Shown here: positions 3,001 to 27,782 of the stretch, piece after piece | Layout: each line of letters begins with the position of its first letter | Position numbering within the stretch: position 1 is the first letter of the stretch | Assembly (NCBI GenBank): GCA_030614005.1 | Contig: JAUWKS010000013.1 | Coordinates: forward strand, 31,466 to 63,465 | DNA length: 32,000 bases | Direction: 5' to 3' | Origin: Candidatus Heimdallarchaeota archaeon | Lineage (GTDB): Archaea; Asgardarchaeota; Heimdallarchaeia; JABLTI01 | Program-made: the position numbers and the translations under genes | The notes under the pieces: model-generated | The model's database searches: none | Seen by the model: the letters and a program-made list of their open reading frames with translations, nothing else | What the model was told of the DNA's origin: nothing

Positions 3001-6000
3001 AACTTCTTTCAAACGATTATTTTGTTCCAAAATTTTAGCTATTTTACCATAACAGAGAATAGCATTTTCTATACTATTTGCTGCCATTAATTGATCTACT
3101 AACTCTTCCAAAAATTGAATTGCTTCTTCTACCTGACTAATTTCAGTTAAAATTTCTGCGCCTCGAATACCCCAAGAAACAGCAACTTCATTGTTCTTCT
3201 CTTTGAGAAACTCTTCACAAGTGTTGATACAGATGCCTGCAGCTTCGATATGGTTATTCACACTTTGGAGAATTTCAATAGTGAGATTAATGTAATTTGT
3301 TGCAGGGAGAAGTTTCCTTTCAGCAATTAAATTGCTTGAAAAAACTGCTACTTTATTTGCTAGCTGACTGATTTGTTTCAAATTTTGGGCTTGAATATAT
3401 ACTTTGTAGGTTTTTTCTAGACTAATTAAAGCTGCTTCATGCAGATCTTCTTTTGAGTAGACTTCCCATTCAGTAAGTTTAATCTGTCCATTTAGTTTCA
3501 AATCATTAATTTGCAATGCGAAATTCTCAGCTACCTGATAGAATTCTTGACTTCTTGCTGCTCTTACTGTTCCATCTAATTTTATTGTGGGAATACTACC
3601 TCGAACAATTTCTGTTGCTATATCGACTATTTGTGTGATAAGTTTAGTCAATTCTTTGTTTTTATTTAGACTTAGATAAATGTCACCCGTATTTCTGATT
3701 TTGGCTAAACCCTCTTCCAAATTATTATTTACAATATAATATTGACCCATTGAGTTATGTATTTCAGCAATTGCTGAACGGTCTTCTATAATAACGAATA
3801 ATTTTATAGCTCTTTCTAAAAGATTTATGCCAAATTGAGGTGTGTGGCTATGAAGGAATTTTTCACCTTCCATTCTTGCTGTTTGAGCTCCTTGAATAGT
3901 TTGCTCTGCATTATTCAAAGCTTCAATACCCAGAGTAATCATATTATTCGATTCAGGAAGCATATCTCTTTGGAAGAGCTCTCTTCCTTTTTCAATAATT
4001 TCTGCACCAACTATAGCTGCATGTCGAACTGATGAAGAAATATACAAATCAATTGAATTTCCATAGTATTTTGTTGAAAGCTCATATTGTTCTTTTTCTA
4101 AAAACTTTTTAGCAACTTCATAAGATCGACCAGCTTCCGCCTCTGTGTTTACTGCACCATCTATCTGAATGGCAACTTGATATCCTTTTTCAGCGTTAAC
4201 AAAATCACCTTTATTCAGTATAGTTGTGTATGTTTCAAAGCAATGATTAGCAACACCAGGATAAATTTGATCTTTTTCGGGTATTTTATTTTTTACTGAA
4301 GCAAGACGGTAATACTCAAAACTTTTTTCGTGATTATCATGTTCAGAATGATATCTTGCTAATGCAGAGAGAATTCTCGCTGCTTCTTCAGGTTGATCCG
4401 CTTTAGTGAACTCAACAGCTCCCTCCTCAAAAAGAGGGTCTGCATATTCAGTAAGGTTCTTTCGTAAGAAATCTGCAGCAAAACTTACCATAATTTTAGC
4501 TGCACGTTCATATTCTCCTGCTTCAGAAAGCACTTTGCCACTCCCTCGAGCCGAGGCAAGTGTGATATCATTTAGTTCTTCAAGATTGAATTTTCTAACA
4601 TTCCCTATGTGATCCTCAATAGTTTCTACGGCTGAATTAATATTTCGTTTAATTAATGCTCTCGAGAGTGTTTCATTAAACTCACAGGCAGCACTCCACA
4701 ATCCTTTGGCATTAATAATATCTCCAGTTTTTATACACTGCTCTGAATACTTTGTGGCGAGAAGAACTAATGGTTTGAATTTTTGCTCTCTAAGTTCTTC
4801 AGGAATTGTTTGAGCAGCAAGTTTCAATCGATCTAATGCAATGTCAAAATGGCCTTCTACTAATAGTTCATCAGCAAGTTTGACATATACATCTGCTGCC
4901 TCCTCGCTTTTCCCTGCTTCAATATATGCTTCAGCTGCTTTTGTTGCTAAATCAATGCCTGTTTGAAGATTTCTAACCTTAAACATAGGTTGCCACGAAG
5001 AATCAAGAGTATCTGCTGCTAGTTCTATTTCCCCTAATTCCATAAAGAACTCCGCACAAAGACGATACATTATCTCAGCATAATGGAAATCATTTTTACT
5101 AAATCGCTCTCGAGCGAGTTGTCGTATTTCACTGGGGATATCCACTCTTTCTTCGCTCTCAGGCAAATCTTTTAGTGGGTCAATCATTTTTTTGAAAGCT
5201 TCAGTGGCTAGTTGGAATTTGTTATATTTTAGTAGAAGCTCTGCTTCTTTCCTATAAACTACTACCTCAAAATTACGATCAATTAATCTTCCAATCTCAA
5301 TTGCAATATAAAAATAGTCTCTGCCAATTGGATATTGCTCTATTGTGTGAAGTTGGAGTCCTAATGAAATAATATTATTCCCAAATTCAATGGTTTTATC
5401 TTTATTACCAATTTCAATGTAATATTCTTTAGCCATATTATAGTAGGGAATTGCCTCTCGATAGAGTTTCTTTTCAAAAATAGCTAATCCAATTAAAGCT
5501 AGCTCACGTGCAAGAACCGTTATAGCTGGAACTGCTTTTCGAGTAATACAGATATCTTTTGCATGTTTAATTAAACGAATAGCAGTGCTATTATTAAAAT
5601 CAACTGCAGCTGCTTTCAAAAGTTGGTTTTCTGGGTCTAAAATTTCAGGAATTAAGCTCTCTATGTGAGAGACAAAATTTGCCATCACATTTTCAGCTGC
5701 TAGGATAATAGTTTCCTTATTATCAGTATTCATCTCAAGAAGTAGCTTAACAGCTTCGTCAAGTGTTTTCTCTCCTTTTTCAGCTTGACCGCTTTCAATA
5801 TATCTTTGAGAGAGTGATGTGTAGAAATCAATTGTGCCAATTTCATAATCAGCTTTTTTATAGAGTACTTTTGCTTTCTCTAAATACTCTTCCCCAATTT
5901 TCTCTTCGTCAGCTCTAACTCTTGCTTTAGATAATATTTGAATGGTATTTTCAATGTAAGCTTTAGCTGCCTCTAGGTATTTTCCTTTTGGATCCTTGCC

Positions 6001-6363
6001 AATTTTTTCATACTGATTTGCAATTGTTTCATTTATTTTGCCTACTAAATCAAACCTGTTTTCCTTTGTCTGGAAAATTATTGCTGCTTTCTCTAAGAAA
6101 TTTTCAGCACTAGTTTGAAATGACTCATATTCCGAATGATCCAGTTTTTCACTTGCATCAATAAAATAATTAATCGTTTGAATCAATATTTTTGAATCAT
6201 TTTTAGTAATTACTGCTTCAGCAATTTCCAGCATTAACCGAGAAGCTTCTTCAAAATTGTCTTTCTCGATAAAAACTTGTATTAACCTAAAGAATTCATC
6301 AACTGCTGCTCTTGTTGAGCCAGAGTTTAAGAGATGGCGTGCTTTTTCAATATTTTCAAACAT
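1..6363 (-). CDS. Giant alpha-helical repeat (TPR/alpha-SNAP-like solenoid) protein, >=2121 aa; 3' end lies beyond the window start
   Basis: Not in the ORF track because it has no stop inside the window. I read the minus frame from ATG 6363 (MFENIEKARHLLNSG...) to position 1 and found no in-frame stop; an upstream in-frame TAG sits at 6388-6390. The protein is a continuous run of helical TPR-like units (e.g. AAEAYIEAGKSEEAADVYVKLA, EEAARILSALARYH, EKSFEYYRLA) with no recognisable catalytic motif or TM segment. Confidence 0.93.
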   Translation of the reverse strand, partial: MFENIEKARHLLNSGSTRAAVDEFFRLIQVFIEKDNFEEASRLMLEIAEAVITKNDSKILIQTINYFIDASEKLDHSEYESFQTSAENFLEKAAIIFQTKENRFDLVGKINETIANQYEKIGKDPKGKYLEAAKAYIENTIQILSKARVRADEEKIGEEYLEKAKVLYKKADYEIGTIDFYTSLSQRYIESGQAEKGEKTLDEAVKLLLEMNTDNKETIILAAENVMANFVSHIESLIPEILDPENQLLKAAAVDFNNSTAIRLIKHAKDICITRKAVPAITVLARELALIGLAIFEKKLYREAIPYYNMAKEYYIEIGNKDKTIEFGNNIISLGLQLHTIEQYPIGRDYFYIAIEIGRLIDRNFEVVVYRKEAELLLKYNKFQLATEAFKKMIDPLKDLPESEERVDIPSEIRQLARERFSKNDFHYAEIMYRLCAEFFMELGEIELAADTLDSSWQPMFKVRNLQTGIDLATKAAEAYIEAGKSEEAADVYVKLADELLVEGHFDIALDRLKLAAQTIPEELREQKFKPLVLLATKYSEQCIKTGDIINAKGLWSAACEFNETLSRALIKRNINSAVETIEDHIGNVRKFNLEELNDITLASARGSGKVLSEAGEYERAAKIMVSFAADFLRKNLTEYADPLFEEGAVEFTKADQPEEAARILSALARYHSEHDNHEKSFEYYRLASVKNKIPEKDQIYPGVANHCFETYTTILNKGDFVNAEKGYQVAIQIDGAVNTEAEAGRSYEVAKKFLEKEQYELSTKYYGNSIDLYISSSVRHAAIVGAEIIEKGRELFQRDMLPESNNMITLGIEALNNAEQTIQGAQTARMEGEKFLHSHTPQFGINLLERAIKLFVIIEDRSAIAEIHNSMGQYYIVNNNLEEGLAKIRNTGDIYLSLNKNKELTKLITQIVDIATEIVRGSIPTIKLDGTVRAARSQEFYQVAENFALQINDLKLNGQIKLTEWEVYSKEDLHEAALISLEKTYKVYIQAQNLKQISQLANKVAVFSSNLIAERKLLPATNYINLTIEILQSVNNHIEAAGICINTCEEFLKEKNNEVAVSWGIRGAEILTEISQVEEAIQFLEELVDQLMAANSIENAILCYGKIAKILEQNNRLKEVEETALKVMAFGTANIKSNNPEAGLRLWEVALTIGAIVGEEFTGRLCMIEGQTFYEIKDYEKSIELFKESFTLFRRTGKKNRLIHLANTIFKIALNLQKKREYDTAFKMLPIAFEAMTSADDLFLGTEKLLTHAKNYIEVERAKEGFHLINTAIDALFAKGEITGGIEKCFVGAALLISYGRNVGGSRLIDKGMEKIAQITDESSIKHLATVCRNQGIILREDGKLEASHVILASGIGILRTINDLIGIGQISIDLGRTLVKRNEMAAAVEAFRNGVHLLAQGNLTKESLDVVNELIAEGRKQIDNNNVNAGMPLVELAGGLYIFLQRTERIMVISEIFINQGGKMLNERNFDIAALYFSKAMELSTRAGLNDYLPKVGNRCIDFGLKLIKEGDPILGIQFMNAGGELIIQYETKLEKASRAGANYLETISQVLGPQYEKSIEDEESRLELIGQFVDSTTKFLTQTKNQKGLENLSKMLTVYGKKLLVSRGPRIARGILDAAFAAADLAGNSKLKIDIANNYLNHVNYLVKNKKLELLDATVNQARSIYLETNDTKEIRKFIGTLAQTGRILCIESSTRNEGRKLLSIVTNLVINLSEKDFYSVITFPLIQLNQDITEEANIDLVIFARENIIKLLNSIINTNHPLSILGNLDFANMIMAWHQTAELLLQKAITFDKAIRIEDQALRLASISKQHQIGIAIIDNLLAILESLTKKRFKGLDVLMETLATAMNDLGQKERIIEIGKQCIALGQLAADKKKLSDAINFLKAAGRIYEIYGNNRLIAEVAMTSASIGDQKIKEEKFKEGLYYYSTSLENYELSGDENSIQIIATTIQNLFNTVPIEDGYICYLVPGMVYANRDKIEEAEDIAFQALDQAKKMLNSGKKDLIFHSIPYVFAATDIYERTGSFIEETKIYDGLMFKYLEATSDSKIINLFLDLLIRTSLKKLRIWDFNAIQAIFDKVDDQRVLKNKKFVALKKSLEAFQEGNLASTLQQAHLVNIK

Positions 6364-6596
6364 CGTTAGTTTTACAACCCACAAAGCCTATAATATAGTG
6401 CAAGATCTTTTTATTTCTACTTCTAATTGAATATAGACTATTTACTTATATATTTGACTCTTATCCAAATAAAAATTGTGTTTAATGATATTCTTCGAAG
6501 ATTTAAACATCTTCAAATAGGCAAAGTAATTTCCCATGGTCAGTATTTATATTAGATGCTTTATTATGTTATACAATTAACATAGGTGAATATACA

Positions 6597-7986: not shown

Positions 7987-9762
7987 CTAAACTTGACTCC
8001 TATAGACAATTGCATTCGGTACTCCCGCAATATTAGCTACGACTATTAATCCGTGCTGTGAAAAGAATTCATGAATGTCAAAGAAATATAGAGTCACTCT
8101 TTGAATATCAGTCGTTCGAACAACAACATACGTACCTTTTATTGAGAATTTTTCTAAAGTATCACTATCATTCAGTCTCCATATTGGACTTGTAAATTGT
8201 GAACGTATGAAAGTAATTGAAATATTTTTATTCAAATAAGCGTAACCACCTGTATACCAAACCATTTCTAGAACAATAAGCCTTTCAGAATCTTCTTGTT
8301 GCCCTACCCAGTACATTGCATTACAGATGCCTGAATTCCATTTCCACATATAGTTTTTCTTAACTAATCCCATATACAATGAAGATGTGCTTAACATAAC
8401 CAGAAGTAAACCTAAAACAACATATTGAAACTGTTTTCTTTTAACCAATTTCGAAAATTTGTAAATACCATTAGCAACGAAAAGCATGCCAAGGGGAAGA
8501 AAGGTCATTATAAATCTAAATTCTTTATGAGCAATGGATGAGAAAATTGCTAACCAATAGAACATTAAAATTAAAACGAATACTTTTGACTTGGTCTTTT
8601 CCTTAAAAATAAGTCCAAAAATGAGTAAGAAAAAAAAGATGAATATGAAGATATAGGCGAAATCAGTGAAAAATCCGGCAAAGTATTGGAACCAGGGAGA
8701 CGTACCATGATATGCACTATTGCCTTCCACAATATTATATCGAAAGTAATTGATAGGCGAATGAAGAAAGGTACCCCAAGTAAATAAATCTAATAATCCC
8801 TGGAAGAGAACCATCAAAAATGCTCCCCCACAAAAACTTGCTAGAGTTGAAAACGAATTAAGATATTCACCTCTACTTAGAGGTTCATATGTTTTCTCTT
8901 TCTTCTTAGCTAACGTTCTAAATGAAATAGCTATTTTTCTGCAAACATCTACAATAGGTTTGTATAAAATTGCAATTGCTAGAGGTATCCCCATAAGAGC
9001 TCCTGGAAATCGTATCATAAAAGATAGTCCTAATGAAAGTCCGGCAATTGCAGAAAGAGTGACTTTCCTCTTCGCTTTTTCATGTCTTATCGCCTTATAA
9101 ATTAGAAAAATGCTTAGAAAGAGAAAATCAGAAGACAATGAATCTGTCATAGTTCGACTCGCCCAATAAGGGAAAAACCACCAAGTACCACAAATAAATG
9201 CACTTATTAAACCAACGATTTTATTAAACATCTCTTTGCCAAATAGATATGAAACTACAACAGTAATTATTGAGAAAAGAGAAAGAAATAATCGAGCCGA
9301 ATAAATCAAAACCAATGGATCTGTTATTCCGAAGAGCATTAGAAATTTATAGACCCCAACAAGTATTAAAACAAAGAACCATGACCTTGCTCCACCAAAT
9401 CGATAAGCAGTGTTGTATTCCCAAGGAATGGTTTGACCTGTTCCATATTCCCCATATATCCAATAATGAATCATTTCAAGCGATTGAAAGACTTCATCAG
9501 GATGAACAAACCCTTGGGATTCTTGTGCAGCTAAGAGACGAAGAAGAATGGATAAAATGATAATAACTGTCAAAGGTAAATAATTGAATATTTTTTTGAA
9601 AAACGTTGTACTAACAACATCAGAGAAATTCTTTCTAGTGGGCATGTGTTCATTCACTTTTTCTTGATCATGAATGGAGAATTGAGTTTTAGTAGGTTGG
9701 TCTCCATCGAGCAAAAGCCATTCTCTCCAGTTTAGGTATACAAGGTTAGAAATATTAACCAT
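7987..9762 (-). CDS. GT-C fold glycosyltransferase family 22 (PIG-B/GPI10-, ALG9-like mannosyltransferase), multi-pass membrane protein
   Basis: FVHPDEVFQSLEMIH resembles the PIG-B first luminal loop (FVPDEYWQSLEVSH, recalled); also PWEY...RSW, SRTMTD and HKEFRFI; about 10-12 hydrophobic segments. The true start may be the downstream ATG (MPTRK). Confidence 0.85.
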   Translation of the reverse strand: MVNISNLVYLNWREWLLLDGDQPTKTQFSIHDQEKVNEHMPTRKNFSDVVSTTFFKKIFNYLPLTVIIILSILLRLLAAQESQGFVHPDEVFQSLEMIHYWIYGEYGTGQTIPWEYNTAYRFGGARSWFFVLILVGVYKFLMLFGITDPLVLIYSARLFLSLFSIITVVVSYLFGKEMFNKIVGLISAFICGTWWFFPYWASRTMTDSLSSDFLFLSIFLIYKAIRHEKAKRKVTLSAIAGLSLGLSFMIRFPGALMGIPLAIAILYKPIVDVCRKIAISFRTLAKKKEKTYEPLSRGEYLNSFSTLASFCGGAFLMVLFQGLLDLFTWGTFLHSPINYFRYNIVEGNSAYHGTSPWFQYFAGFFTDFAYIFIFIFFFLLIFGLIFKEKTKSKVFVLILMFYWLAIFSSIAHKEFRFIMTFLPLGMLFVANGIYKFSKLVKRKQFQYVVLGLLLVMLSTSSLYMGLVKKNYMWKWNSGICNAMYWVGQQEDSERLIVLEMVWYTGGYAYLNKNISITFIRSQFTSPIWRLNDSDTLEKFSIKGTYVVVRTTDIQRVTLYFFDIHEFFSQHGLIVVANIAGVPNAIVYRSQV

Positions 9763-9841
9763 AAAAAACTATTCCATATGCTACTATAACACAAGTATTT
9801 TATAAATAATAGAACTCGATATTACATACAGAGGTAGAAAA
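9763..9841. promoter_or_regulatory. Short divergent promoter region with a near-palindromic TATA element
   Basis: 79-bp gap between head-to-head genes; TATTTTATAAATA at ~9796-9808 reads as a TATA box on both strands; SD-like GAGGT at 9831-9835 precedes TTG 9842. Confidence 0.5.
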
Positions 9842-11962
9842 TTGAGCGACTATATACATACTATCAGCTTCAAAGTTCTCATAGATTCTGAAGTGGTGGA
9901 TTTTACGTTTAGAGTTCCACGAGGAACGTTGCTAATCCAAGTATTGGATGAACTTGAAACAACGCTGAAAATTCAGCCAAGGGTTATTGCTACAGTAAAT
10001 CATGATGGAGAAATAGTTATTATCGAAAACCATTATTCCACCGTTGAGTACCTTATGCAAAAACATGGAACTGATTTTTATGCTGGCGGATCAAGTATTG
10101 TGACATTCAATCATGGAGAATACATTATTGATCTAGAAGTTCCAGAAGCAATTCCATTTGCATCATCCTTTAGAACAGCCTGTAAAAGCTTCTCGATAAT
10201 GCCAAGAGATGTCTCTATGGAAAGACAAGATGGTCAAGTGATGGATTATGAAATATTTCGTATGCCCACCGCTTTTGTGCTAAACTCTTGGGGGAATTTT
10301 TATCGAATTGTTGATCGCGAATTAGGTGATCCTTTAATTGATCCACCAAAAGCAGTTGAAGAAGAGTCGCTCACACATACAGAGCAAACTTCTGAAGAAA
10401 TAAAATCGGAACAAGATTCAATGGTCTACCCACCGAAATTAGATGGTTCTGAATTAATAGATGCAGCTTCAGTAGTATCTGAAATAGATACTTTGACTGA
10501 TCATTTTGTTGAATCCTCCTTATCTGATGACCAAGAAAAACCAACAATTGAATCATTAATGGATGAAATACGTATAGATAGTGAAACCGATTTAGACGAT
10601 GACGAAGAGGAGTTTATGACTCAAGCAATTGACGAACCCTTAGCAGATTCTGTTATTACAGATGTTTCACACATAGAGGAGAAGGAGGAGGAACCTGAAG
10701 GCGTTCCCCTAAGTGAAGTGATTGATTTTGACGATGAAATAGAAGCTTTAGAGGATGAAACAATTGCTGATGAAGAGGAAGAAGATGATTTAGAAATTTT
10801 TGCCCAAGATTATGAAGAAGTAACGGATTTTGAAGAAGTTGATACTGAAGAACAAATTTCCGATGAATTTGTTGATGAGGATGAAGAGGTCATTGACGAT
10901 CTTCCAATTGAAGAAACTTCTCCATCATTTGAAGAAATGATAACAACTTCTGTAATAGAAGAGAAAGTAGAATCAGATGAAGTTGAAGAACCTGAGGAAG
11001 AAAAAATAGTTACTCAACCATTTGATGATGAGCAATTTATTGATTCAATCAATGATCATTATGTTGAAAAAGATACGAGTGATCAAATACCAGTATTCTC
11101 TACTGATGAAACAGAAATAACCGAAGATGTTGAGGATGAAGACTTAGACGAAGACCCTCAAGCATTGGATGATTTGACGGAAGATATGGTTATCAAATCC
11201 GAAGATATTTTCGAATCTGATCTCAAAGAGATAGATGAAGTAACTGAACAACCAGTAGTTGCTCCTATTCAGGATGATTTGTCTTTAGACCAAAGATTAG
11301 AGATTAGAAAACAAGAGCTAGTTACTCTTGAAAAAATCTTAAGTGAAGAAGAGAAATTAAAAGTAAAGATACAACAAAGGACAATTACCATCGATTATTA
11401 TGAGAAAATGAATCCACGAAAAATATATCCAATAGCGGTGAAAATTTCACCTACTACTTCACCTAAACAAAATAAATTCACTGACCAACTAAAGATTGTA
11501 CCGATATTTCCAGGTTGTTATGTAACTCCCCATCAAGAAATTATTGAAATAAATGGTGAAAGTGATATTGATACAGAATTCACTGTAACACCTCTAATTA
11601 GCAAAGGAATAGTAAATGGAAAACTTGGTATCTGGTATAAAGAAAGAAATATTCTCAATATCAATACTAGATCAAAAATAAGGAATTATTCGGGTTGCAT
11701 TGTTAGTAGCATATTGGCATTTCTATTTGGAATTATGCCTTTTATGTTTTTAATATTCAATTTTAATTTTAATGAAGCTTTAGCAACTGGAATAAATAAC
11801 ATTCTTTCAACATCATTGACAACTACTTTGTTAATGATTATTGAAATAATTCTGTTAGTAGTTTTCCTTGGCCTAATGGTAGGGTTTATTTTCGTAGGGA
11901 AACCAGCAAAACGAAAAATAAAACGCAAATTTTATCCTGTTGCACCTCAATCTGATGATTAA
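9842..11962 (+). CDS. Membrane-anchored protein: two tandem UFM1-like beta-grasp domains, long acidic disordered linker, coiled coil, predicted beta-sandwich, two C-terminal TM helices
   Basis: Residues ~8-83 (SFKV..VP..T..VL..DG..T..KHGT..AGG) and ~86-162 (LEVPEAIPF..DG..TAFVLNSWGNFYRIVDRELG) align by eye to UFM1. D/E-rich residues ~173-470; two hydrophobic helices and a basic tail KPAKRKIKRK. Confidence 0.8.
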   Translation: MSDYIHTISFKVLIDSEVVDFTFRVPRGTLLIQVLDELETTLKIQPRVIATVNHDGEIVIIENHYSTVEYLMQKHGTDFYAGGSSIVTFNHGEYIIDLEVPEAIPFASSFRTACKSFSIMPRDVSMERQDGQVMDYEIFRMPTAFVLNSWGNFYRIVDRELGDPLIDPPKAVEEESLTHTEQTSEEIKSEQDSMVYPPKLDGSELIDAASVVSEIDTLTDHFVESSLSDDQEKPTIESLMDEIRIDSETDLDDDEEEFMTQAIDEPLADSVITDVSHIEEKEEEPEGVPLSEVIDFDDEIEALEDETIADEEEEDDLEIFAQDYEEVTDFEEVDTEEQISDEFVDEDEEVIDDLPIEETSPSFEEMITTSVIEEKVESDEVEEPEEEKIVTQPFDDEQFIDSINDHYVEKDTSDQIPVFSTDETEITEDVEDEDLDEDPQALDDLTEDMVIKSEDIFESDLKEIDEVTEQPVVAPIQDDLSLDQRLEIRKQELVTLEKILSEEEKLKVKIQQRTITIDYYEKMNPRKIYPIAVKISPTTSPKQNKFTDQLKIVPIFPGCYVTPHQEIIEINGESDIDTEFTVTPLISKGIVNGKLGIWYKERNILNINTRSKIRNYSGCIVSSILAFLFGIMPFMFLIFNFNFNEALATGINNILSTSLTTTLLMIIEIILLVVFLGLMVGFIFVGKPAKRKIKRKFYPVAPQSDD

Positions 11963-12000
11963 CAGACGCTGTTAATCACTTTCATTTTCTAAATGCTCTA

Positions 12001-12014
12001 GAAAGATTTTAATA
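12001..12014 (+). promoter_or_regulatory. Putative BRE-TATA promoter for the OST5-like gene
   Basis: GAAAGA-TTTTAATA about 40 nt upstream of ATG 12054; same pattern as the element at 31048-31061. Confidence 0.45.
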
Positions 12015-12053
12015 TAAACTAAATAAAAAAACAAGAGAAGGTGTTAAGAACAA

Positions 12054-12272
12054 ATGAATGATTTCAACGCATTCCTTGGACCAAAAGGTTTACTAGCATT
12101 TGCAATTATTTTCGTAATTTTAGGAATAGCCGCACTCGCATGGTTATTCATGTATCAAGAAGCAGACCCTGATAGAACATTTCGTGGTTCAGTAGCTAGA
12201 GCGTTTTCTGCATCAATGTTTTTAGGATTTTCAGCCTTTCTCTTTGTTATTTGGAGCGGCGTACTAATATAA
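12054..12272 (+). CDS. TMEM258: OST5/TMEM258-like oligosaccharyltransferase small subunit (2 TM)
   Basis: LGIAALAWLFMYQ...ASMFLGFSAFLFVIWSGVLI matches recalled human TMEM258 IGMFFTAWFFVYE...[20 protein letters not shown] in motif, spacing and length (72 aa). Confidence 0.8.
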   Translation: MNDFNAFLGPKGLLAFAIIFVILGIAALAWLFMYQEADPDRTFRGSVARAFSASMFLGFSAFLFVIWSGVLI

Positions 12273-12291
12273 TTTCAATAATGAAACGAAG

Positions 12292-12309
12292 AGCGATCGT
12301 TTGATCGCT
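12292..12309. terminator. Hairpin between convergent genes, possible bidirectional terminator
   Basis: AGCGATC-gttt-GATCGCT perfect 7-bp stem in the 59-bp gap, followed by T-rich sequence. Confidence 0.5.
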
Positions 12310-12331
12310 AAACTTTAATTTTATTAGTTCT

Positions 12332-13078
12332 TCAATGGTATTTTGCATTTGAGCATTTGTTCCTAGATTTAATCTTGATGGAATCAAAGAGCATTGAACC
12401 GATATCAATGAATAATAATCTATTAGTTAACAATGGTTTTTCTTTTAACATAACTCTAGTAGCTTCGGCAATCTGTAAACTACCAATTAACTGTATTATA
12501 CTCGGATGAATGCCAGTTTCTGCTGAAGATGGAAGTGCATTATCATCAATATGACCAAATAAACACTCGATACAAGCGCCTCCTCGAACAACTGTCATTA
12601 CATTCCCTGCTAAACCGCTAACCGCACCAAATAGGAAAGGTATATCGCTTTCTAAGCATTTCTTGTTAATTGCGAATCTTGATGTGAACCTATCTAAAGC
12701 ATCAATAACAAAATCAACATTATCAGTTACAAGATCAACATTTCTAGTAGAAACCTCTTCTTGAATGATTTCAATTTTAACATCTGGGTTTAGCTTTTCT
12801 AAGAATTTTTTAGCCGCATTTACCTTTGGTTTGCCTACATCCTTTTCACGGTATAGCATTTGTCTTTGTAAATTTGATAACTCAACAATATCTTTGTCAA
12901 AAAGTCGCAGGTGACCCACACCTAATGCTGTAAGTTGAGTTGCAGTAACAGAACCAAGACCTCCAGCTCCAACAATTGAAACTCTTGCTCGTCGAATTTT
13001 TTTCATACCCTCAACACCAATTGTTGGGAGATTAACAAAACGAGAATATCTGCCTGTAGAAAAATTGTTTTCGTTCAA
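12332..13078 (-). CDS. ThiF/MoeB/HesA family E1-like adenylyltransferase
   Basis: RYSR, VSIVGAGGLG, FDKDIVELSNLQRQ, VGKPKV, DALD, CIEC, IGSLQIAEA. Start placed at TTG 13078 (GGAG about 10 nt upstream); the ORF-track start at 13111 overlaps the HD gene. Confidence 0.92.
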   Translation of the reverse strand: MNENNFSTGRYSRFVNLPTIGVEGMKKIRRARVSIVGAGGLGSVTATQLTALGVGHLRLFDKDIVELSNLQRQMLYREKDVGKPKVNAAKKFLEKLNPDVKIEIIQEEVSTRNVDLVTDNVDFVIDALDRFTSRFAINKKCLESDIPFLFGAVSGLAGNVMTVVRGGACIECLFGHIDDNALPSSAETGIHPSIIQLIGSLQIAEATRVMLKEKPLLTNRLLFIDIGSMLFDSIKIKSRNKCSNAKYH

Positions 13079-13082
13079 ATCT

Positions 13083-13673
13083 TTATTTCTCCATAAGTAG
13101 TTCTTTTGCAAGTTTCTTAACTAAGCTAAATTCATAATTGTCAACTTCTTTATTGAAACTAATGAAAAAATCACTAAACATCTCTTTAGAGAGGCCATTT
13201 CGAATATAATTGTTCAGCTGAAGAATTGTTTCAAGACGATCTGCTTCAGATACAATCCTTGCTTCTATTGATTTCTTTTCCTGAAATTCAGCGAAATATT
13301 CTTGCAAAATTTTCCCTTGTTCTTTAGGGAGCTTTGCAAATAATGATTTTGCCGCATTTTTATCAAGGTCATGTTTGAATGCATCATATTTTTCCGGAGA
13401 GAATTTTCTTATGCAACGATTAATATCTTGAGATACACTTTCTGAGAGATCATGAATATGGGCCATAATTAGTGCTTTCTCTAGATTGATTTCCTTTCCT
13501 TTAGCTTTTTCATCAAAACAGATTAGCATAGTTATCATAGTAACAAATTGACTGTGGTCTGCAACACTCTCTACATCTGAAAGCGGAACACCGGAGTAAA
13601 TCCAACCACTTCTAACAATTCGTTTAAGGCGGATGGCTTCTTGTAAAAATGACAATAGATTAATTTCATGCAT
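13083..13673 (-). CDS. HD-domain phosphohydrolase, YfbR/HDDC2-like 5'-deoxynucleotidase family
   Basis: LKRIVRSGW, ESVADHS, AHIHDLSES, EARIVSEADRLE. Confidence 0.88.
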   Translation of the reverse strand: MHEINLLSFLQEAIRLKRIVRSGWIYSGVPLSDVESVADHSQFVTMITMLICFDEKAKGKEINLEKALIMAHIHDLSESVSQDINRCIRKFSPEKYDAFKHDLDKNAAKSLFAKLPKEQGKILQEYFAEFQEKKSIEARIVSEADRLETILQLNNYIRNGLSKEMFSDFFISFNKEVDNYEFSLVKKLAKELLMEK

Positions 13674-13764
13674 TTATATCACACATCTTATAATAATTCA
13701 GTTTTAATTAAAAATGATTGGCAATTACTTTCAAAAAAAGAGTTGGTTGGTAAATTGTTCCAAC

Positions 13765-14532
13765 CTATGTATAAAAGTTGCTCTTTTTCCTTGCTTGTCG
13801 GGGTGTTCCAGCAGACATTTCATTTGTCTGAAGTGCTAATTCTGAAAGTTTCTTTTTAATGGATTCAGATTGCTCAATCAAGGTTTCAACATTGATATCT
13901 AATTCTTTCAAGTCATTGATAATTTTAACAAGAGAGGCAGCCCCACCAGGATCAGGGAGTTCAGGTCTTGTGCCTACAAGAAACGCATAACCATCTATAT
14001 CACTTATCATGGTTTTATTTAGAATTGCACCAGCAAACCCTTTGATAAAGCCACTTTTCAGAGGAGGAATTTTCAGCTTCTCTGCTTTATTTTTAATTTC
14101 GGGTTCGGAAACCATATACACTTTCCCTTCATCCTTTCTATTGAGATAACCAAATCCATCAAGGGTTATAATTTCCTTTGCTCCATGCCCTTCTGCCCAC
14201 GACATAATAGCATTGGAAATAAAGTATGCTGCTTCTGGAGAAACAGCACTTTCACCAATAAATACTGCAATTTTCAAATCCTTCTTCCCCATAATCCGAT
14301 AGGGATGTCTCAGATACCCATCTAGGAAAACAGCAACAGGTGGTATTGCAACGCCTTCAATAAAACCAATGGTTTTTAGTTCCAATTTTTCACTTATATG
14401 TTGGGCAGCAATCGCTCCAGTTAATCCCATACCTGGAAAACCAACAATAACTGTTTCTACATCAAAATCAGTTTTACAGATGCATCGAGCATACATCTCA
14501 CTACTTTCAATTAAACTTCTATCATAGTTCAA
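13765..14532 (-). CDS. PAC2-family proteasome assembly chaperone (archaeal PbaA/PbaB-like)
   Basis: IVGFPGMGLTGAIAA, EIITLDG, GFIKGFAGAIL, PDPGGAA, INVETLIEQSE. Confidence 0.9.
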   Translation of the reverse strand: MNYDRSLIESSEMYARCICKTDFDVETVIVGFPGMGLTGAIAAQHISEKLELKTIGFIEGVAIPPVAVFLDGYLRHPYRIMGKKDLKIAVFIGESAVSPEAAYFISNAIMSWAEGHGAKEIITLDGFGYLNRKDEGKVYMVSEPEIKNKAEKLKIPPLKSGFIKGFAGAILNKTMISDIDGYAFLVGTRPELPDPGGAASLVKIINDLKELDINVETLIEQSESIKKKLSELALQTNEMSAGTPRQARKKSNFYT

Positions 14533-22925: not shown

Positions 22926-23615
22926 CTATCTCATCCATTGTGCTACTTTGACTCCTTTCCAACGTTTTATCTCGCCGTTTTTCATACCGATGAAATCAGG
23001 AATCATTCTGAGGATAATGAGTATTGTGCACCCCCAACTAAAAACCATTATTGGCCACGTATGCCAATGAGTTCCATCAAGCAAGGAAAATTGTCCTACT
23101 AGATAGAAAATAGTGTATGTTGTCGCAACGGATACTGTTGCCATTATACCTGCTATTCCACTATATCTGATAATTATTAACCAAACAAGTAATGAAACCC
23201 ACCAAACAAGGATACCCCATGGATTGATTACAATCATGACACCAGTTAATACTGCAAATCCTTTGCCTCCTTGAAATTTCATCCAAGGCATCCAACAATG
23301 TCCCGCAAATGCTGCAATACCACACAGAGCAGCTAGTAAATCCAAATTCACTGGTTCTAAAGATGTTAGAGTACTGAAAAAGATATATCGAGTTAATAAT
23401 GTGCCAAGAAAGCCTTTTGTAATATCTAAAGACATAGTTAAAATCGCCCAACTATAACCCGCTGTTCGTACAGTGTTTCTAGTGCTAACGGAACCTGAAC
23501 CTTCATTTCGCACATCTTTTCCAGTAACTAATTTAACAATAATCCAAGCAAATGGAATCGAACCGAAAAAGAACCCAATAATTGGTGCTAAAATATAAGG
23601 ATAAATCATCTGCAA
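22926..23615 (-). CDS. plsY: PlsY-family glycerol-3-phosphate acyltransferase homolog with divergent motifs
   Basis: FGSIPFAWII, DVRNEGSG, DITKG, GH...FQGGKGFA; multi-TM, 229 aa. Motif 3 is degenerate (see findings). Confidence 0.85.
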   Translation of the reverse strand: MQMIYPYILAPIIGFFFGSIPFAWIIVKLVTGKDVRNEGSGSVSTRNTVRTAGYSWAILTMSLDITKGFLGTLLTRYIFFSTLTSLEPVNLDLLAALCGIAAFAGHCWMPWMKFQGGKGFAVLTGVMIVINPWGILVWWVSLLVWLIIIRYSGIAGIMATVSVATTYTIFYLVGQFSLLDGTHWHTWPIMVFSWGCTILIILRMIPDFIGMKNGEIKRWKGVKVAQWMR

Positions 23616-24054: not shown

Positions 24055-24287
24055 GAAAGTATATTTTTGGAATAATTTTATTCGTAAGAGAAACTAACAG
24101 CCTTTTTTTTCTTTGTTATACCCATAACACAATACTTTTTTGCATACAATTCAAAAATATGCTATCTGATAATTTGTTGCTAATAGTTAAATTGCTCGTA
24201 ATTTTGTAAATTAGGTTCATTTACACAAATGAATAAGCAGAATAATCAAATTATTAACTATTGAAATCCTGTTTGGAGAGAAAAAAC

Positions 24288-25937
24288 ATGCCAGAAGTAG
24301 GTCTAGGAGAATTCGATGATCAAGAAGTATTAAAGAAATCGCTTGTGGCATTCGAAAAAACCAAAAAAGAGATTCAAGATCATATTCTTGAAAGAACCGC
24401 AGTTGTTCCTGATGTAACTTTAACTGAAATAGAAAAAGAATTCAATATTTCCACAGAACTCGCGAAAGCAATTTTTGTGTTAGAATTTGAGTATTATATT
24501 CCGAGGAAACTTTCAGCAAATTGTTACCTCTCTGAAATGAAGAGACTTACAGAAGCTCAATATGAATTGCCGGATATTTACTCTTTTAGAGTAAGGTATT
24601 CAATGGAAGAAGGTTTTTGGATTAAATATCTAGTAGTGGATCTTCCAAAAAAACTTGAACATAAAATGGGTAAACTGAAAAAAATCTATTGTTCTCTATT
24701 TGGCGACCTCGCCGCGGATAAAGAAGACGCAGCCGTATATATTATCGAAAGAGCTTTTATCTGTAGTGAGGTAATAAGACCAATTATCCATTCTTGGATG
24801 AAAGAGCATCATCGAGCAAAGTATTCTGATTGTGTGAAAACATTTTTGTGTAGCATCCAACGAAAAGCAAGAGAAAAGTGTTTACCATTAGTGGAAGAAA
24901 TTGGCAATAGATTTCATTCACAGATGGATTCACTAAGAAGTATCATTACCGAAATTCGACCAAAAGGGTGGATAATGAATGCAAAAGAAGAATATAATAA
25001 ACTTTCAGAGAAACTAATACTATTTGAAAAGGAAGACTACCTTGATTGGCGATTAGCTGCAGAAATTATTTTAGAAACAATGTTGTTGAGAGATTTTGAT
25101 GATCAAGATAAAGAAGAAACAGATTTTGTAGTTAAAGAAATGCCAAAACAAAAAGAAAATATTGTAACTCAAATGATAACAACAAAAAAGGAAAAATACC
25201 TCACAGATGATATTTCAGTAATTCTTACAAAAATAGTTGATTTATCTGAAGAGAACCAGAAACCGCTAATAGAAGAGATGATACAAGAAAATTATGATCA
25301 TGCAACAGTCAAAAACCGAGTAAAACCAGCTATTTTCTCAAAGATTTTTCTTGAAAGGATTATGACTGAACTGATGATTGGAAATAAAGAAATAGTCAAA
25401 ATAACAAAGAAATTTGATGTACAACTTATGTTTCGCTTATCTCCTGCTGGAGGAAAAGAATTTCCACATTTAGGAATAGATGACAAAATAACTGGATTGC
25501 TTGAAGAATTTGTTATGGATATTCTACAAAAACAAAATGAGCTAAAAATGATTTCTACAGAAGAAACTATGAGGGAGAAAGCTGAGCAATCTATTGAAGA
25601 GAGCGAAAAACACTCAGAAGAAGTAGACTCGACAAAGAAAAGTCAAGTGGTTGGGAAAATAAAGGAATCGAGTGAAAAGGAATTATGGTTATTTGTAAGA
25701 GATGAATACTTGAAAGAATTATTCGATAGTGAGAAAGAATTAGTTGCAGGAGCAAGAATTCTGAAGAAATATTCACTTGAACTGGGATTATTAATGACTG
25801 AGGGAGAAGCAACGTCATATCTAACCTCTGAACTCGATAAGAAGGGCTTTTCTATTGAAAGCTCAAGCAGAGAAGATATTGATTCAAATGTGTGCAAAAT
25901 CGTTTTCAAACAGTTGAAAGAATTGAGGAAATACTAA
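24288..25937 (+). CDS. Hypothetical soluble alpha-helical protein (~550 aa)
   Basis: Long ORF; GGAGAG SD before ATG 24288 (ORF-track start 24261); no recognisable family motif. Confidence 0.85.
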   Translation: MPEVGLGEFDDQEVLKKSLVAFEKTKKEIQDHILERTAVVPDVTLTEIEKEFNISTELAKAIFVLEFEYYIPRKLSANCYLSEMKRLTEAQYELPDIYSFRVRYSMEEGFWIKYLVVDLPKKLEHKMGKLKKIYCSLFGDLAADKEDAAVYIIERAFICSEVIRPIIHSWMKEHHRAKYSDCVKTFLCSIQRKAREKCLPLVEEIGNRFHSQMDSLRSIITEIRPKGWIMNAKEEYNKLSEKLILFEKEDYLDWRLAAEIILETMLLRDFDDQDKEETDFVVKEMPKQKENIVTQMITTKKEKYLTDDISVILTKIVDLSEENQKPLIEEMIQENYDHATVKNRVKPAIFSKIFLERIMTELMIGNKEIVKITKKFDVQLMFRLSPAGGKEFPHLGIDDKITGLLEEFVMDILQKQNELKMISTEETMREKAEQSIEESEKHSEEVDSTKKSQVVGKIKESSEKELWLFVRDEYLKELFDSEKELVAGARILKKYSLELGLLMTEGEATSYLTSELDKKGFSIESSSREDIDSNVCKIVFKQLKELRKY

Positions 25938-25956
25938 AAAAAATCATTATCCTCTT

Positions 25957-26094
25957 TTATCTGTCCTCAAAAATTGAGAAGGATCTACTCGTCGTTTTTT
26001 GATTAGCATTATCAGAAGAATTGTTACCAATAACATCTTTCTTACGGTAACTGCGGCTCAGATTTTCCGCCCAAAAATCTAGTTCAACTGGCAT
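25957..26094 (-). CDS. Candidate small ORF (45 aa, MPVELDFWAENLSRSYRKK...)
   Basis: Read by hand; ATG at 26094 with GAAGGT upstream, convergent to the preceding gene. Below the ORF-track cutoff and no homology evidence. Confidence 0.3.
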   Translation of the reverse strand: MPVELDFWAENLSRSYRKKDVIGNNSSDNANQKTTSRSFSIFEDR

Positions 26095-26543
26095 GCTATT
26101 TCTTTACCTTCTCAAGATTGGTTTGTAGTGACAATGATATTTCAATAATTCAATAAAAACAACCGCAATATCGGGATAGTTACCTCAATATTAGCTTCTA
26201 ATAGAATTTAGAGATGAAAAAGAGAAGAAAAAAAGGTTTTTGTAGCGACAAAAACACCGATGCTTTTTCCCACAAAACATAAAAAGAATCAATAAAAAGT
26301 ACAATTAGAAAGTTACTAGACTTCAAATCCAGAAAAACTAGCTGAAGTTACCAGTACAAAGAAAAGTTCCTAAAATCAATGTTATCTTAGATGGGAACAT
26401 CAAGAAAAAGCGGGGATATGTTTAACTATTCAAAAAGTGGTTAGATAAAAAACATCACCAAATAAACAAGTACTTGGTACAGATAGATTTTGAAGGAAAT
26501 GAAATACAGACCAAACAATTGGTAATAGGTTGATGAAAGAACA

Positions 26544-27782
26544 ATGTCAATGAAAGCAGATTTCATAAAAGAATTAGAAATTTCTACATTCTCAAAACCA
26601 ATTCTAAAAGAAATGGGCGTAAAAGCAATCTTCTTAGTCACTTTTGACATTATCCTAGGACCAATAGCCTATGTCAATAAACTCTCTACAGAAAAAAGTG
26701 AGTATCTCGAATTTTTGCAACAGAATATAGCGCACCTAGGAGAATTTTACACTGGAATATCACATGCACAAATCGATAAAGTAACAACAAGAACCGGAGA
26801 AGAAATGCTTGTAGGACGAGCAACAAGAAAAGTAAATGAAATGGAACTAATAGATATCGCCGTAGCTTTAGTGGACTCAACAGAATATCATAATGAAATT
26901 GTTAAGATGCTAAAATTCGTTGTGAGAACGTCATATGGCAATCCAAAAAACTTTTGTGATTTATTAGACAGAGTGTTGCTGGAATATCAAGACCTCGGAA
27001 AGAAAAAAGCAGAGGCAGGAAAATTCGCCGTATTCAAAGATGCTTCAAAGGAAAAAGTGGCGAATATAGCAAAGCTATATCACAATTGGAAAGGAGTACT
27101 ATTCATAGATTTTGAAGGAGATAACATAAACAGCTCATTTATGCCGGATTGGATTGAAGCGAGTAAAATAAATTCGCAGGAATTAGCTCAGAAAACGAGA
27201 AATATGTACGCAGAAGGAGTTATCATTCCAAGATCTAAACAAATATTTTCGATGGTAAGCATAAAAGGCAAACAAGTAATCGTTGTATCAACAAATAATT
27301 CACGCTATGTAACAATCATTTTCCCGACAGCAGATGGAATGACAAAAATATCAACAATAGCAGAAAATATGGATATTATTAACGAGGCACTGAGCGAAGT
27401 GGGAATGCAATTCAGCACAGATGCAATGAAGAATACTCTCGAGATAATCGATAAAAGAATAAGAGAAAATGATACCAGCGTCTTAATGAAAGAAGTAATT
27501 GTAGTAATGTTAAGATCCGAAGAGTTGATGCCAAAGAAAAAGATAAAACAAGAAGAATTTGAAGCATTTCAGGGAGAAATACAAAAGAAATATTTTCAAG
27601 GATTGAATAAAGCATTCGAAGAATTTGATGGCACAAAAACAATCTTAGAAATAACTCATAGAGTAAATGTTAGTTTAGAGCAAATGGGTGATTTTGTGGT
27701 GTTTTGTATGACAAGGGGAATTGTGCAGGTCTTTACTAAAAATGGCCGAACAAGAAAAACAGATGGAAAAGTTGTTATCTAA
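26544..27782 (+). CDS. Longin/uDENN-type N-terminal domain protein with C-terminal winged-helix-like domain (NPRL2-like layout)
   Basis: KAIFLVTFDIILGP fits the hhhhxF(D/H)xxxGP longin/uDENN opening motif; C-terminal FDGTKTILEI...VFCMTRGIV resembles the NPRL2 winged helix (recalled PYIDG...LLYYGVV). Confidence 0.6.
   Translation: MSMKADFIKELEISTFSKPILKEMGVKAIFLVTFDIILGPIAYVNKLSTEKSEYLEFLQQNIAHLGEFYTGISHAQIDKVTTRTGEEMLVGRATRKVNEMELIDIAVALVDSTEYHNEIVKMLKFVVRTSYGNPKNFCDLLDRVLLEYQDLGKKKAEAGKFAVFKDASKEKVANIAKLYHNWKGVLFIDFEGDNINSSFMPDWIEASKINSQELAQKTRNMYAEGVIIPRSKQIFSMVSIKGKQVIVVSTNNSRYVTIIFPTADGMTKISTIAENMDIINEALSEVGMQFSTDAMKNTLEIIDKRIRENDTSVLMKEVIVVMLRSEELMPKKKIKQEEFEAFQGEIQKKYFQGLNKAFEEFDGTKTILEITHRVNVSLEQMGDFVVFCMTRGIVQVFTKNGRTRKTDGKVVI

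Follow-up and report, generated by a model that had tools for sequence, protein, structure and literature searches.

A hairpin-anchored membrane protein with a UFM1-like head in one lineage of Heimdallarchaeia, and the partly older neighbourhood in which it lies

We analysed a window of 32,000 nucleotides (the whole stretch of DNA under study) from a Candidatus Heimdallarchaeota genome. Six neighbouring genes and, further along, a pair of orphan genes are relevant here:

7987..9762, minus strand: GT22 (Alg9/PIG-B-like) GT-C mannosyltransferase (Pfam PF03901, E = 1.9e-48, 166 bits against a cut-off of 23.8)
9842-11962, plus strand: UFM1-TM gene, an open reading frame of 706 aa that matches no Pfam family
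12054..12272, plus strand: Ost5/TMEM258 homologue of 72 aa with two TM helices (PF05251, 33.6 bits against a cut-off of 27.4)
12332..13111, minus strand: short Cys-less MoeB/Uba4-type adenylyltransferase, E1-like (ThiF, E = 1.1e-69)
13083..13673, minus strand: HD-domain (YfbR-like) phosphohydrolase (HD_3, E = 2.7e-24)
13765..14532, minus strand: PAC2 proteasome-assembly-chaperone family protein (PF09754, E = 2.1e-37, 129.5 bits against a cut-off of 25.8)
24261..27782, plus strand: two Asgard-only orphan genes of 558 aa and 412 aa (no Pfam family)

An earlier note on this DNA had described the six genes as a membrane-tethered UFM1-like modifier clustered with glycosylation, E1 and proteasome-chaperone genes. 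Its description of the locus was accurate: GT22, the 706-aa protein, Ost5, E1, HD and PAC2 all lie where it had placed them and on the same strands, and Pfam agreed with the identities given to GT22, Ost5, the ThiF-type E1, HD and PAC2. The GT22 and UFM1-TM genes diverge head-to-head from a gap of 79 bp. Ost5 starts 91 bp downstream of the UFM1-TM gene and does have the promoter-like element of its own that had been claimed, with a TATA-like box and an SD-like motif. Ost5 and E1 are convergent, 59 bp separating their stop codons, and the HD gene overlaps the start of E1 by 29 nt; E1, HD and PAC2 are indeed all on the opposite (minus) strand. The window ORFs with Pfam hits include no member of an E2, E3 or UBL-protease family, as the note had also observed. 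When compared with the PDB, Ost5 matched human TMEM258 alone (E = 1.5e-3, full length) and GT22 found no relative by sequence.

The phyletic range of the UFM1-TM gene is narrow. It was found at 10 loci among 185,579 species genomes, all in one family-level lineage of two genera (f1); no full-length UFM1-TM protein was found outside f1, and a profile of the head domain run against 399 Asgard genomes recovered no relative outside this family. Three distant phmmer hits (P0025-P0027) were discarded as a chance similarity of ~40 residues multiplied by tandem repeats, with no homology. Among the sequencing runs listed as containing the gene cluster or the UFM1-TM gene alone, the DNA runs are cold-seep and marine-sediment metagenomes, and none is an RNA run. 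Within f1 the entire ~25-kb block is collinear, from a giant solenoid gene to a histidine kinase, and conserved gene order is therefore uninformative on function there. The GT22 family is present in 46 of the 82 Heimdallarchaeia genomes and linked to the UFM1-TM locus in f1 alone. Outside f1, neither GT22 nor UFM1-TM nor a PAC2 of the window's type was found near Ost5 or E1. A PAC2 gene does lie near Ost5 in family f33, and PAC2 was considered as a conserved partner of Ost5. The candidate was rejected: the genome has a second PAC2 paralogue, on contig C124, and it is to this one that the f33 protein is orthologous (38% identity, against 20% for the paralogue in the window).

Ost5 itself is widespread, being detected in 182 of the 399 Asgard genomes, and part of its surroundings recurs. 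Ost5 occurs with E1 and/or HD in the Heimdall family f5 and, outside the class, in f32 and f33. Ost5 and E1 are adjacent in four f5 genomes, belonging to four genera, in two relative orientations; the f33 order is orphan-HD-E1-Rce1-like-Ost5, and in f32 HD adjoins Ost5. According to tblastn, both orphan families encoded at 24261-27782 adjoin HD-E1-Ost5 in f33, and the first (558 aa) also adjoins Ost5 in f31 and f26. All homologues of both orphan genes are annotated as hypothetical, and Pfam at E ≤ 1 gave nothing useful for these two families or for the f31 neighbours of Ost5. Looking for genes that stay together despite diverged surroundings, we found this for Ost5, E1 and HD alone, and in part (f5, f32 and f33); UFM1-TM, GT22 and the window's PAC2 paralogue do not behave in this way. 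From the linkage across Asgard genomes that had been envisaged, the Ost5-E1-HD portion thus survives in these three families, and UFM1-TM (f1 only), GT22 and PAC2 fall away. Only the Ost5-E1-HD part of the neighbourhood is old. Since it is conserved across classes, some functional coupling among the neighbours is plausible.

These recurrences could be taken further, Ost5, E1, HD and the orphan families forming an old Asgard membrane module to which the UFM1-like protein was recruited non-covalently, for example with the Cys-less E1 as a UBL-binding scaffold. The f5 adjacencies in both orientations, the f33 and f32 arrangements and the return of the orphan families next to Ost5, E1 or HD would all fit, as would a PAC2 gene located 0.8 kb from Ost5 in genome G397. 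However, most Ost5-E1 pairs are not co-transcribed because they are convergent. In f20 and f31, the families with most genomes, Ost5 lies beside other unknown genes, with E1 or HD at 0 of 29 sampled loci, and in the Heimdall family f6 Ost5 and E1 are on separate contigs. The f33 PAC2 is the other paralogue, and a biochemical rationale for linking the Ost5, E1 and HD enzymes is absent. We consider such a module unlikely, though with some chance of being real.

The E1-like protein resembles MoeB and ThiF more than UBA5. Its PDB matches favour MoeB (2e-32) and ThiF (1e-30) over UBA5 (3e-22), and against the NCBIfam equivalogs for MoeB, ThiF and UbaA it scored 197-213 bits, where the cut-offs are 266-450. 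The crossover Cys of MoeB aligns to a Ser in the window E1 and is missing in every f1 orthologue. As this cysteine is absent, the enzyme is expected to be unable to form an E1~UBL thioester. Orthologues from f5 and G397 keep both the crossover Cys and a C-terminal domain of ~110 aa, an extension for which Pfam at E ≤ 1 gave nothing useful (that of G397 is weakly TBP-like, E = 1.1e-3). The short Cys-less form is also present in G398, which has no UFM1-TM gene; the loss of the cysteine is therefore not tied to the UBL.

Elsewhere in this 90%-complete genome, a MAG in which absences are provisional, a search for UFC1, UFL1 (E3_UFM1_ligase) and UFSP (Peptidase_C78) homologues found none. The genome has three E1 genes. 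A UBA1-like E1 is on contig C91, and on C94 an E1 gene precedes genes for a 103-aa protein with a terminal Gly and for a weak E2-like protein. The Gly-ended protein (P0028) was examined as a possible relative of the UFM1-like head and proved unrelated by hhalign and PDB search. A free ubiquitin ending in Gly-Gly is encoded 19 kb upstream, without E1, E2 or E3 neighbours. STT3/AglB is present on contig C26, and the conserved Asgard neighbours of Ost5 are not OST subunits.

The 706-aa protein is divided as follows:

9842..10090, plus strand: head domain 1, residues 1-83, probable beta-grasp with an invariant Gly82 (low-confidence AF2 and ESM Atlas models)
10091..10327, plus strand: head domain 2, residues 84-162, UFM1-like beta-grasp ending at the invariant Gly162-Asp163 (profiles and Atlas model)
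10337..11338, plus strand: polyacidic disordered tether, residues 166-499 (38% Asp+Glu, net charge -113)
11378..11932, plus strand: anchor module (AF2 model)

The anchor is the part predicted with most detail. AF2 with a 22-sequence alignment gave a model of pLDDT 86 and pTM 0.72, in which a PapD-like beta-sandwich (513-613) is followed by a TM helix (617-638), a short helix (643-655) and a second TM helix (661-685), and the basic strand of the tail (689-697) returns to pack on the sandwich. The membrane anchoring by two TM helices that had been proposed is confirmed by this confident model. Basic residues lie before the first TM helix and after the second, from which we infer that both ends of the protein face the cytoplasm. 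Foldseek against the PDB returned PapD-like chaperones and ASH domains (E ~2e-4); against AFDB clusters, the whole module was recovered at the C-termini of bacterial STAS, TIR, FHA, vWA and CHAT proteins (E from 8e-12 to 1e-6), and a weak DUF7363 match was also obtained. Other Heimdall proteins have the same anchor under different heads, joined by acidic or proline-rich linkers, and one of these heads is Ras-like (Pfam E = 1.6e-20). The tether of 334 residues differs in length and sequence among orthologues, which range from 642 to 886 aa.

Conservation within the protein is highest in the head, at 60-91% identity among 50%-cluster representatives; the anchors of these representatives reach 35-56%. 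Three routes (PDB profile hits, Pfam Ufm1 and the Atlas structure match) clearly make domain 2 UFM1-like, on the strength of sub-threshold, reciprocal and UFM1-specific profile hits together with the predicted structure of an orthologue. The 13 best matches of the domain 2 profile in the PDB were all UFM1 (E from 0.09 to 0.3), with a sequence alignment covering the helix-1 region. The window protein did not match Pfam Ufm1 (PF03671) at E ≤ 0.01 and its orthologues scored 17-20 bits, under the curated cut-off of 27; in six-frame scans of 82 genomes, Pfam Ufm1 gave six hits at E ≤ 0.01, five of them on orthologues of the UFM1-TM protein. Structural comparison of the ESM Atlas model for orthologue P0008 gave the UFM1 cluster as the best match to residues 84-162 (TM 0.82 over 76 residues), followed by other UBL domains. 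Domain 1 is probably a beta-grasp too. Its strands and helices are ordered b-b-a-b-b-a-b in the low-confidence AF2 model, and residues 1-161 of the P0008 Atlas model align to polyubiquitin (TM 0.56) and to both UBLs of OASL. Domain 1 had no significant sequence hits, its profile found nothing in the PDB, and its similarity to domain 2 was not significant in hhalign. The notion of an N-terminal, UFM1-like beta-grasp head is thus supported by profile hits and predicted structure, and that of a tandem holds for domain 2 and is plausible, with weaker evidence, for domain 1. AF2 of residues 1-175 with 12 orthologues reached a pLDDT of 40, and the Foldseek matches of this model were non-significant (best E 0.14). 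The weak matches, taken as no more than a consistency check, were nearly all beta-grasp folds, with UFM1 ranked 3.

The end of domain 2 invites a comparison with modifier precursors. Gly162-Asp163 is invariant and coincides exactly with the end of the structural alignment to UFM1. A membrane-held precursor might be cut after Gly162, perhaps also after Gly82, and the released unit activated by the E1 and attached at the membrane with Ost5, GT22 and PAC2. The E1 lies one gene away, a placement that chance is unlikely to produce when the genome contains three E1 genes; Ost5-E1-HD is an old neighbourhood, and SAMP-type conjugation in archaea, which needs no E2 or E3, offers a precedent. However, the E1s of f1 lack both the crossover Cys and the C-terminal domain kept in f5 and G397 and are more MoeB/ThiF- than UBA5-like, and the same short form in G398 occurs without a UFM1-TM gene. 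The 90%-complete genome yielded no UFC1, UFSP or UFL1, and the UBL gene occurs in a single family, the E1-Ost5 pairing being older. Unlike in typical UBL precursors, conservation runs on for ~6 residues past Gly162, and in sister proteins this type of tether and anchor supports heads that are clearly not tags. Release and conjugation therefore appear quite improbable. A complex prediction of the E1 dimer with domain 2 (84-162), which scored 0.00 with domain 2 at a pLDDT of 34-60, gave no verdict and counts neither for nor against. It is very improbable that the resemblance to UFM1 is accidental and the head some generic or novel small domain of an orphan membrane protein among housekeeping genes: the low pLDDT values of the head in isolation and in complex predictions, the failure of Pfam scores and PDB E-values (0.09 at best) to reach any curated threshold and the lack of significant similarity between the two domains speak for this, but the sub-threshold hits are reciprocal and UFM1-specific and the independent Atlas model selects UFM1 first and other UBLs next.

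The reading that we prefer, to which we would give an even chance, is that the UFM1-like head is a permanently tethered docking module and that the six genes are neighbours without evidence of one pathway. The 706-aa gene would encode a hairpin-anchored membrane protein with both ends in the cytoplasm, carrying two ubiquitin-fold domains at the end of a polyacidic tether of ~330 residues that hangs from a PapD-like beta-sandwich packed on the membrane hairpin. Because other heads, a Ras-like one included, are carried by the same anchor, the UFM1-like head most likely serves as a permanent docking module rather than a released tag. The anchor would be a reusable module, found under unrelated heads in Heimdallarchaeia and with the same fold in bacteria; the head would stay attached and recruit a UBL-binding partner at the membrane as a docking signal, and is probably neither cleaved off nor conjugated. 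The gene would have arisen in one family-level lineage, between a GT22 gene and the older Ost5-E1-HD neighbourhood, where the E1 would be a stripped-down MoeB/Uba4-type adenylyltransferase that makes no E1~UBL thioester. Several points weigh against this reading: Gly162-Asp163 resembles a processing site, the UBL gene is closer to an E1 gene than chance would readily explain, the cross-class conservation of Ost5-E1-HD makes some coupling plausible, the N-terminal fold relies on an ESMFold model and sub-threshold profile hits, and the absences come from a 90%-complete MAG. An archaeal UFMylation-glycosylation-proteasome system at the UFM1-TM locus is mostly not supported. The earlier note's view of the six genes as one UFMylation-like system finds little support, given a GT22 unlinked elsewhere, a UFM1-TM gene limited to one family, UFC1, UFL1 and UFSP not being found and a Cys-less E1; with STT3/AglB on another contig and a lineage-bound linkage, its precursor of ER-type glycosylation and quality control is likewise unsupported.

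In eukaryotes UFMylation acts at the ER translocon. If Ost5-E1-HD reflected a real functional link of the translocon-associated OST machinery to an enzyme that activates a UBL or a sulfur carrier, and one Heimdall lineage then added a membrane-tethered UFM1-like domain to it, the locus would represent an archaeal predecessor of the UFM1 signalling that takes place at the ER translocon; we see only a slender chance of this, slighter than for any reading above. A UFM1-like domain in Asgard archaea is not new: a structure-based search has reported Ufm1 homologues there from nine clades, and some of these homologues contain several regions with hits as well as long stretches of disorder (PMC12962969). 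New in the searchable literature are the combination of two UFM1-like domains with a polyacidic tether and a PapD-like sandwich and hairpin membrane anchor, and the anchor as a reusable Heimdall module also used with Ras-like and other heads, a concrete and testable example of how the archaea of this group place eukaryote-like signalling domains on membranes. The conserved non-OST neighbours of Ost5, E1/HD in some lineages and unknown families in others, are also new and raise the question of what Ost5 does in archaea.

UFM1 is a modifier that stands alone; UFSP uncovers its C-terminal Gly, which then serves UBA5, UFC1 and UFL1. Domain 2 resembles UFM1 by sequence alignment and over 76 residues of predicted structure, ending at a conserved Gly. 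It differs in scoring below the Pfam cut-off and in its position inside a 706-aa membrane protein, where another 544 residues, the membrane anchor among them, come after it; UBA5-, UFC1-, UFL1- and UFSP-like genes were not found in the 90%-complete genome. With the tandem-UBL modifiers ISG15 and FAT10 and with polyubiquitin the protein shares two beta-grasp domains in tandem. All three end at a conjugatable Gly-Gly or are cut there; in the Heimdall protein the residues after Gly82 vary, and Gly162 leads into a conserved Asp-x-Leu/Phe motif and then a long tail. The window E1 shares with MoeB, ThiF, Uba4/MOCS3 and archaeal UbaA the ThiF fold, a Gly-rich motif for nucleotide binding and the first of the CxxC zinc pairs; it differs by a Ser in place of the crossover Cys and a reduced second zinc pair and, from its f5 and G397 orthologues, by having no C-terminal domain. 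HERPUD1/Herp and TMUB1 carry a cytosolic UBL on a hairpin or TM anchor and use it as a docking module instead of a conjugated tag. By analogy, the Heimdall protein may likewise hold a cytosolic UBL at the membrane for docking; a sequence relationship is undetectable, and it differs in its two UFM1-type UBLs, its 334-residue tether and its PapD-like sandwich. This sandwich matches PapD-like chaperones and ASH domains among the PapD/MSP/ASH-type folds. With the bacterial STAS, TIR, FHA, vWA and CHAT sandwich/TM-hairpin proteins the likeness is structural only: the whole Heimdall anchor superposes on their C-termini, and the difference lies in the Heimdall heads (UBL, Ras-like and other) and their long charged linkers.

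ORF calling and Pfam searches bore out the coordinates and strands of six genes that had been put forward as one candidate system of UFM1-like modification, glycosylation and quality control:

Genes of the locus (Pfam assignment for all but UFM1-TM, which is without a Pfam family)
7987-9762, minus strand: GT22
9842-11962, plus strand: UFM1-TM, a 706-aa ORF
12054-12272, plus strand: Ost5
12332-13111, minus strand: ThiF-family E1
13083-13673, minus strand: HD/YfbR-like hydrolase
13765-14532, minus strand: PAC2

The window, C123:31466-63465, comes from a Heimdallarchaeia MAG (3.6 Mb, 126 contigs, 90% complete), and DNA near-identical to the window is present in cold-seep and marine-sediment metagenomes. 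The TTG start of UFM1-TM was judged correct because the methionine of its orthologues falls at the aligned position; the sequence just ahead of the start carries an AGAGGT motif and a TATA-like box. The promoter-like element attributed to Ost5 was also found (TATA-like box and SD-like motif), and human TMEM258 was the sole PDB match of Ost5. STT3 lies apart from this locus, on contig C26. Elsewhere in the window, a reading frame longer than 2,128 aa that continues past its edge (1-6384, minus strand; SNAP-like and TPR matches) encodes a giant helical-repeat protein, which every genome of the window's own family, f1, has conserved in collinear position. The window also holds a histidine kinase with PAS and embedded thioredoxin/glutaredoxin-like domains (19662-21644, plus strand) and a PlsY-type glycerol-3-phosphate acyltransferase (22926-23615, minus strand; PF02660, E 2e-36), a lipid enzyme of bacterial type that is here encoded by an archaeon.

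Conservation within UFM1-TM is highest in residues 1-165, with 60-91% identity between 50%-identity cluster representatives and 53 invariant positions in 12 sequences. Profiles of the whole head and of its domain 2 (residues 83-168) were compared with the PDB (177,635 sequences): in both cases the 13 best matches were all UFM1 (E 0.09-0.3), aligned over strand 2, helix 1 and strand 3. Reciprocally, the Pfam Ufm1 model scored UFM1-TM orthologues at 17-20 bits, under its cut-off of 27. When 82 Heimdall genomes were scanned in six frames, five of its six matches at E <= 0.01 were these orthologues, and at E <= 1e-3 none of 399 Asgard genomes gave a match. In the ESM Atlas model of the orthologue P0008, residues 84-162 matched the UFM1 cluster best (TM 0.82 by query, 76 residues) and other UBL domains next, while residues 1-161 aligned to polyubiquitin (TM 0.56) and also to the two UBLs of OASL. 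The AF2 model of the head was of low confidence (pLDDT 40); domain 1 nonetheless followed the beta-grasp strand/helix order. The membrane protein with a UFM1-like head is thus real, domain 2 being very likely a UFM1-like beta-grasp, as judged from the reciprocal sub-threshold profiles and the Atlas model, and domain 1 probably a beta-grasp too.

Full-length UFM1-TM was found in f1 only, being carried by 9 of the 10 further genomes of its genus and by the one genome that represents a second genus. The domain 2 profile retrieved nothing beyond the f1 proteins from 399 Asgard genomes, and a pattern scan covering 185,579 species genomes gave no loci other than the same ten. UFM1-TM is an interesting lineage-specific variant. 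Within f1 the entire stretch, and not merely the six genes, is collinear (>2,100-aa solenoid gene, beta-CASP, GT22, UFM1-TM, Ost5, E1, HD, PAC2, homocysteine methyltransferase, hydantoinase A/B, PAS histidine kinase), and the six-gene order is therefore uninformative on function. Outside f1, neither GT22 nor a window-type PAC2 lay within about 9 kb of an Ost5 or E1 orthologue, and HD did so in families f32 and f33 only. GT22 occurs in 46 of 82 Heimdallarchaeia genomes, but outside f1 it sits elsewhere in the genome (148 kb from Ost5 in genome G045). The results do not support the six genes as one system; of their linkage, only the part around Ost5, E1 and HD recurred in other Asgard families.

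In the Heimdall family f5, four genomes, each from a different genus, have an Ost5-like gene adjoining the E1 orthologue (convergent in three, co-directional in one). Outside the class, f32 has HD directly beside Ost5, and f33 has the order orphan, HD, E1, Rce1-like protease, with Ost5 convergent (44-45 bits). Families of both window orphans reappear next to this f33 group, the second one adjoining it:

Asgard-only orphans of the window (no Pfam family)
24261-25937: first orphan, homologue of a family near Ost5
26544-27782: second orphan, homologue of a family near the f33 Ost5

Ost5 has partners other than E1 and HD in f31 and f20, the families with most genomes. In all 15 sampled f31 genomes it lies beside a first-orphan homologue in a one-strand array: 256-aa family, Ost5, ~400-aa first-orphan homologue, 259-aa family (L127:3610-6770). 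It adjoins this homologue in f26 too, where the 259-aa family is also found, and in f20 the 256-aa family flanks it in about 10 of 14 sampled. Neither the 256-aa nor the 259-aa family has a Pfam family, and E1 and HD were never beside Ost5 in the sampled f31, f26 and f20 loci. Another repeated neighbour is a zinc-ribbon/wHTH gene of ~120 aa (f5, f29, f33). A PAC2 gene 0.8 kb from Ost5 in genome G397 was rejected as counterpart of the window PAC2, being orthologous to the other PAC2 paralogue of the window's genome (38% vs 20% identity). The adjacencies in f5, f32 and f33 thus make Ost5-E1-HD a recurrent neighbourhood of some Asgard lineages, probably an ancestral one, which UFM1-TM and GT22 joined in f1 only.

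The UFM1-like domain 2 ends at an invariant Gly162-Asp163 (Gly82 is invariant as well), as might be expected of a modifier precursor whose head is cut after Gly162, activated by the adjacent E1 and attached to targets. However, about six residues beyond Gly162 are still conserved, and the E1 itself speaks against this model. Its PDB matches were MoeB (2e-32), ThiF (1e-30) and UBA5 (3e-22), and it fell below every NCBIfam equivalog cut-off. The crossover-loop Cys is Ser in the window E1 and missing from all f1 orthologues. The f5 orthologues and the G397 E1 retain it, together with a C-terminal domain of ~110 aa (conserved Cys-Gly-Arg motif; weak TBP-like match); the G398 E1 lost both, independently of f1.

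E1 forms compared
window 12332-13111
L078:8976-10052
L113:5248-6315
L112:2400-3170

The short form, with neither Cys nor C-terminal domain, thus arose at least twice (f1, G398), suggesting a joint function of the two cysteines. This pattern of loss argues against a thioester-forming, UBA5-like role and points to a sulfur-relay type E1 cut down to its adenylation core. Moreover, the search for UFC1 and UFSP proposed in the earlier note found neither in this 90%-complete MAG, nor was UFL1 found. The genome holds three ThiS/MoaD-like genes and other UBL components:

Other UBL machinery of the genome
contig C91: UBA1/NAE-like E1, adjoining an SPFH protein
G000:C94:22296-24765 (L099:6296-8765), contig end: ThiF-family E1 (284 aa), 103-aa protein, weak E2-like protein, 98-aa protein
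G000:C123:22269-22502 (L077:10270-10503), 19 kb upstream of the locus: free ubiquitin-family gene, 77 aa, Gly-Gly end

The C94 genes are the likeliest true UBL-conjugation cassette: the 103-aa protein ends in Gln-Val-Gly, and the E2-like protein (259 aa) has a weak UQ_con match (17.8 bits). The free ubiquitin gene is surrounded by housekeeping genes, with no E1, E2 or E3 neighbours.

The remainder of UFM1-TM consists of an acidic linker (residues 166-499; 38% Asp+Glu, net charge -113) and an anchor predicted confidently (residues 500-706; pLDDT 86, 22-sequence alignment). The anchor model comprises an eight-strand sandwich, resembling PapD-like chaperones and ASH domains in Foldseek searches, two TM helices separated by a short helix, and a tail strand of basic character running back to the sandwich. 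The same module is carried under other heads in the Heimdallarchaeia families f2 and f4-f7, joined to it by long linkers that are acidic or rich in Pro, and one of these heads is Ras-like (Pfam E 1.6e-20); this sharing of the module too weighs against a head released for attachment, which we consider improbable. The window's genome has its own anchor paralogue on contig C90. At L021:1438-2718 (G065:C56), Ras-family GTPase segments are joined to the same sandwich and TM hairpin; the heads of other Heimdall paralogues are without assignment or weakly SPFH-like. This architecture is a general means of tethering a cytosolic head to the membrane, and mainly because it serves such varied heads we propose that the UFM1-like head would remain membrane-tethered and serve as a docking module.

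A structure-based search has reported Ufm1 homologues from nine Asgard clades, some of them with more than one hit region and long disordered stretches (PMC12962969). Ost5 has been reported from most Asgard classes (PMC10307638), and UFL1-domain fusions were described by Liu et al. (10.1101/2020.10.19.343400). Within the limited literature searched, we found no description of the membrane-tethered UFM1-like architecture or of the Ost5 neighbourhoods. Among known systems, bacterial proteins headed by STAS, TIR, FHA, vWA or CHAT domains carry, by structural match, the complete anchor module at their C-terminus as UFM1-TM does (AFDB clusters). The E1, lacking the crossover Cys, is closer by PDB E-values to MoeB and ThiF than to the thioester-forming UBA5.
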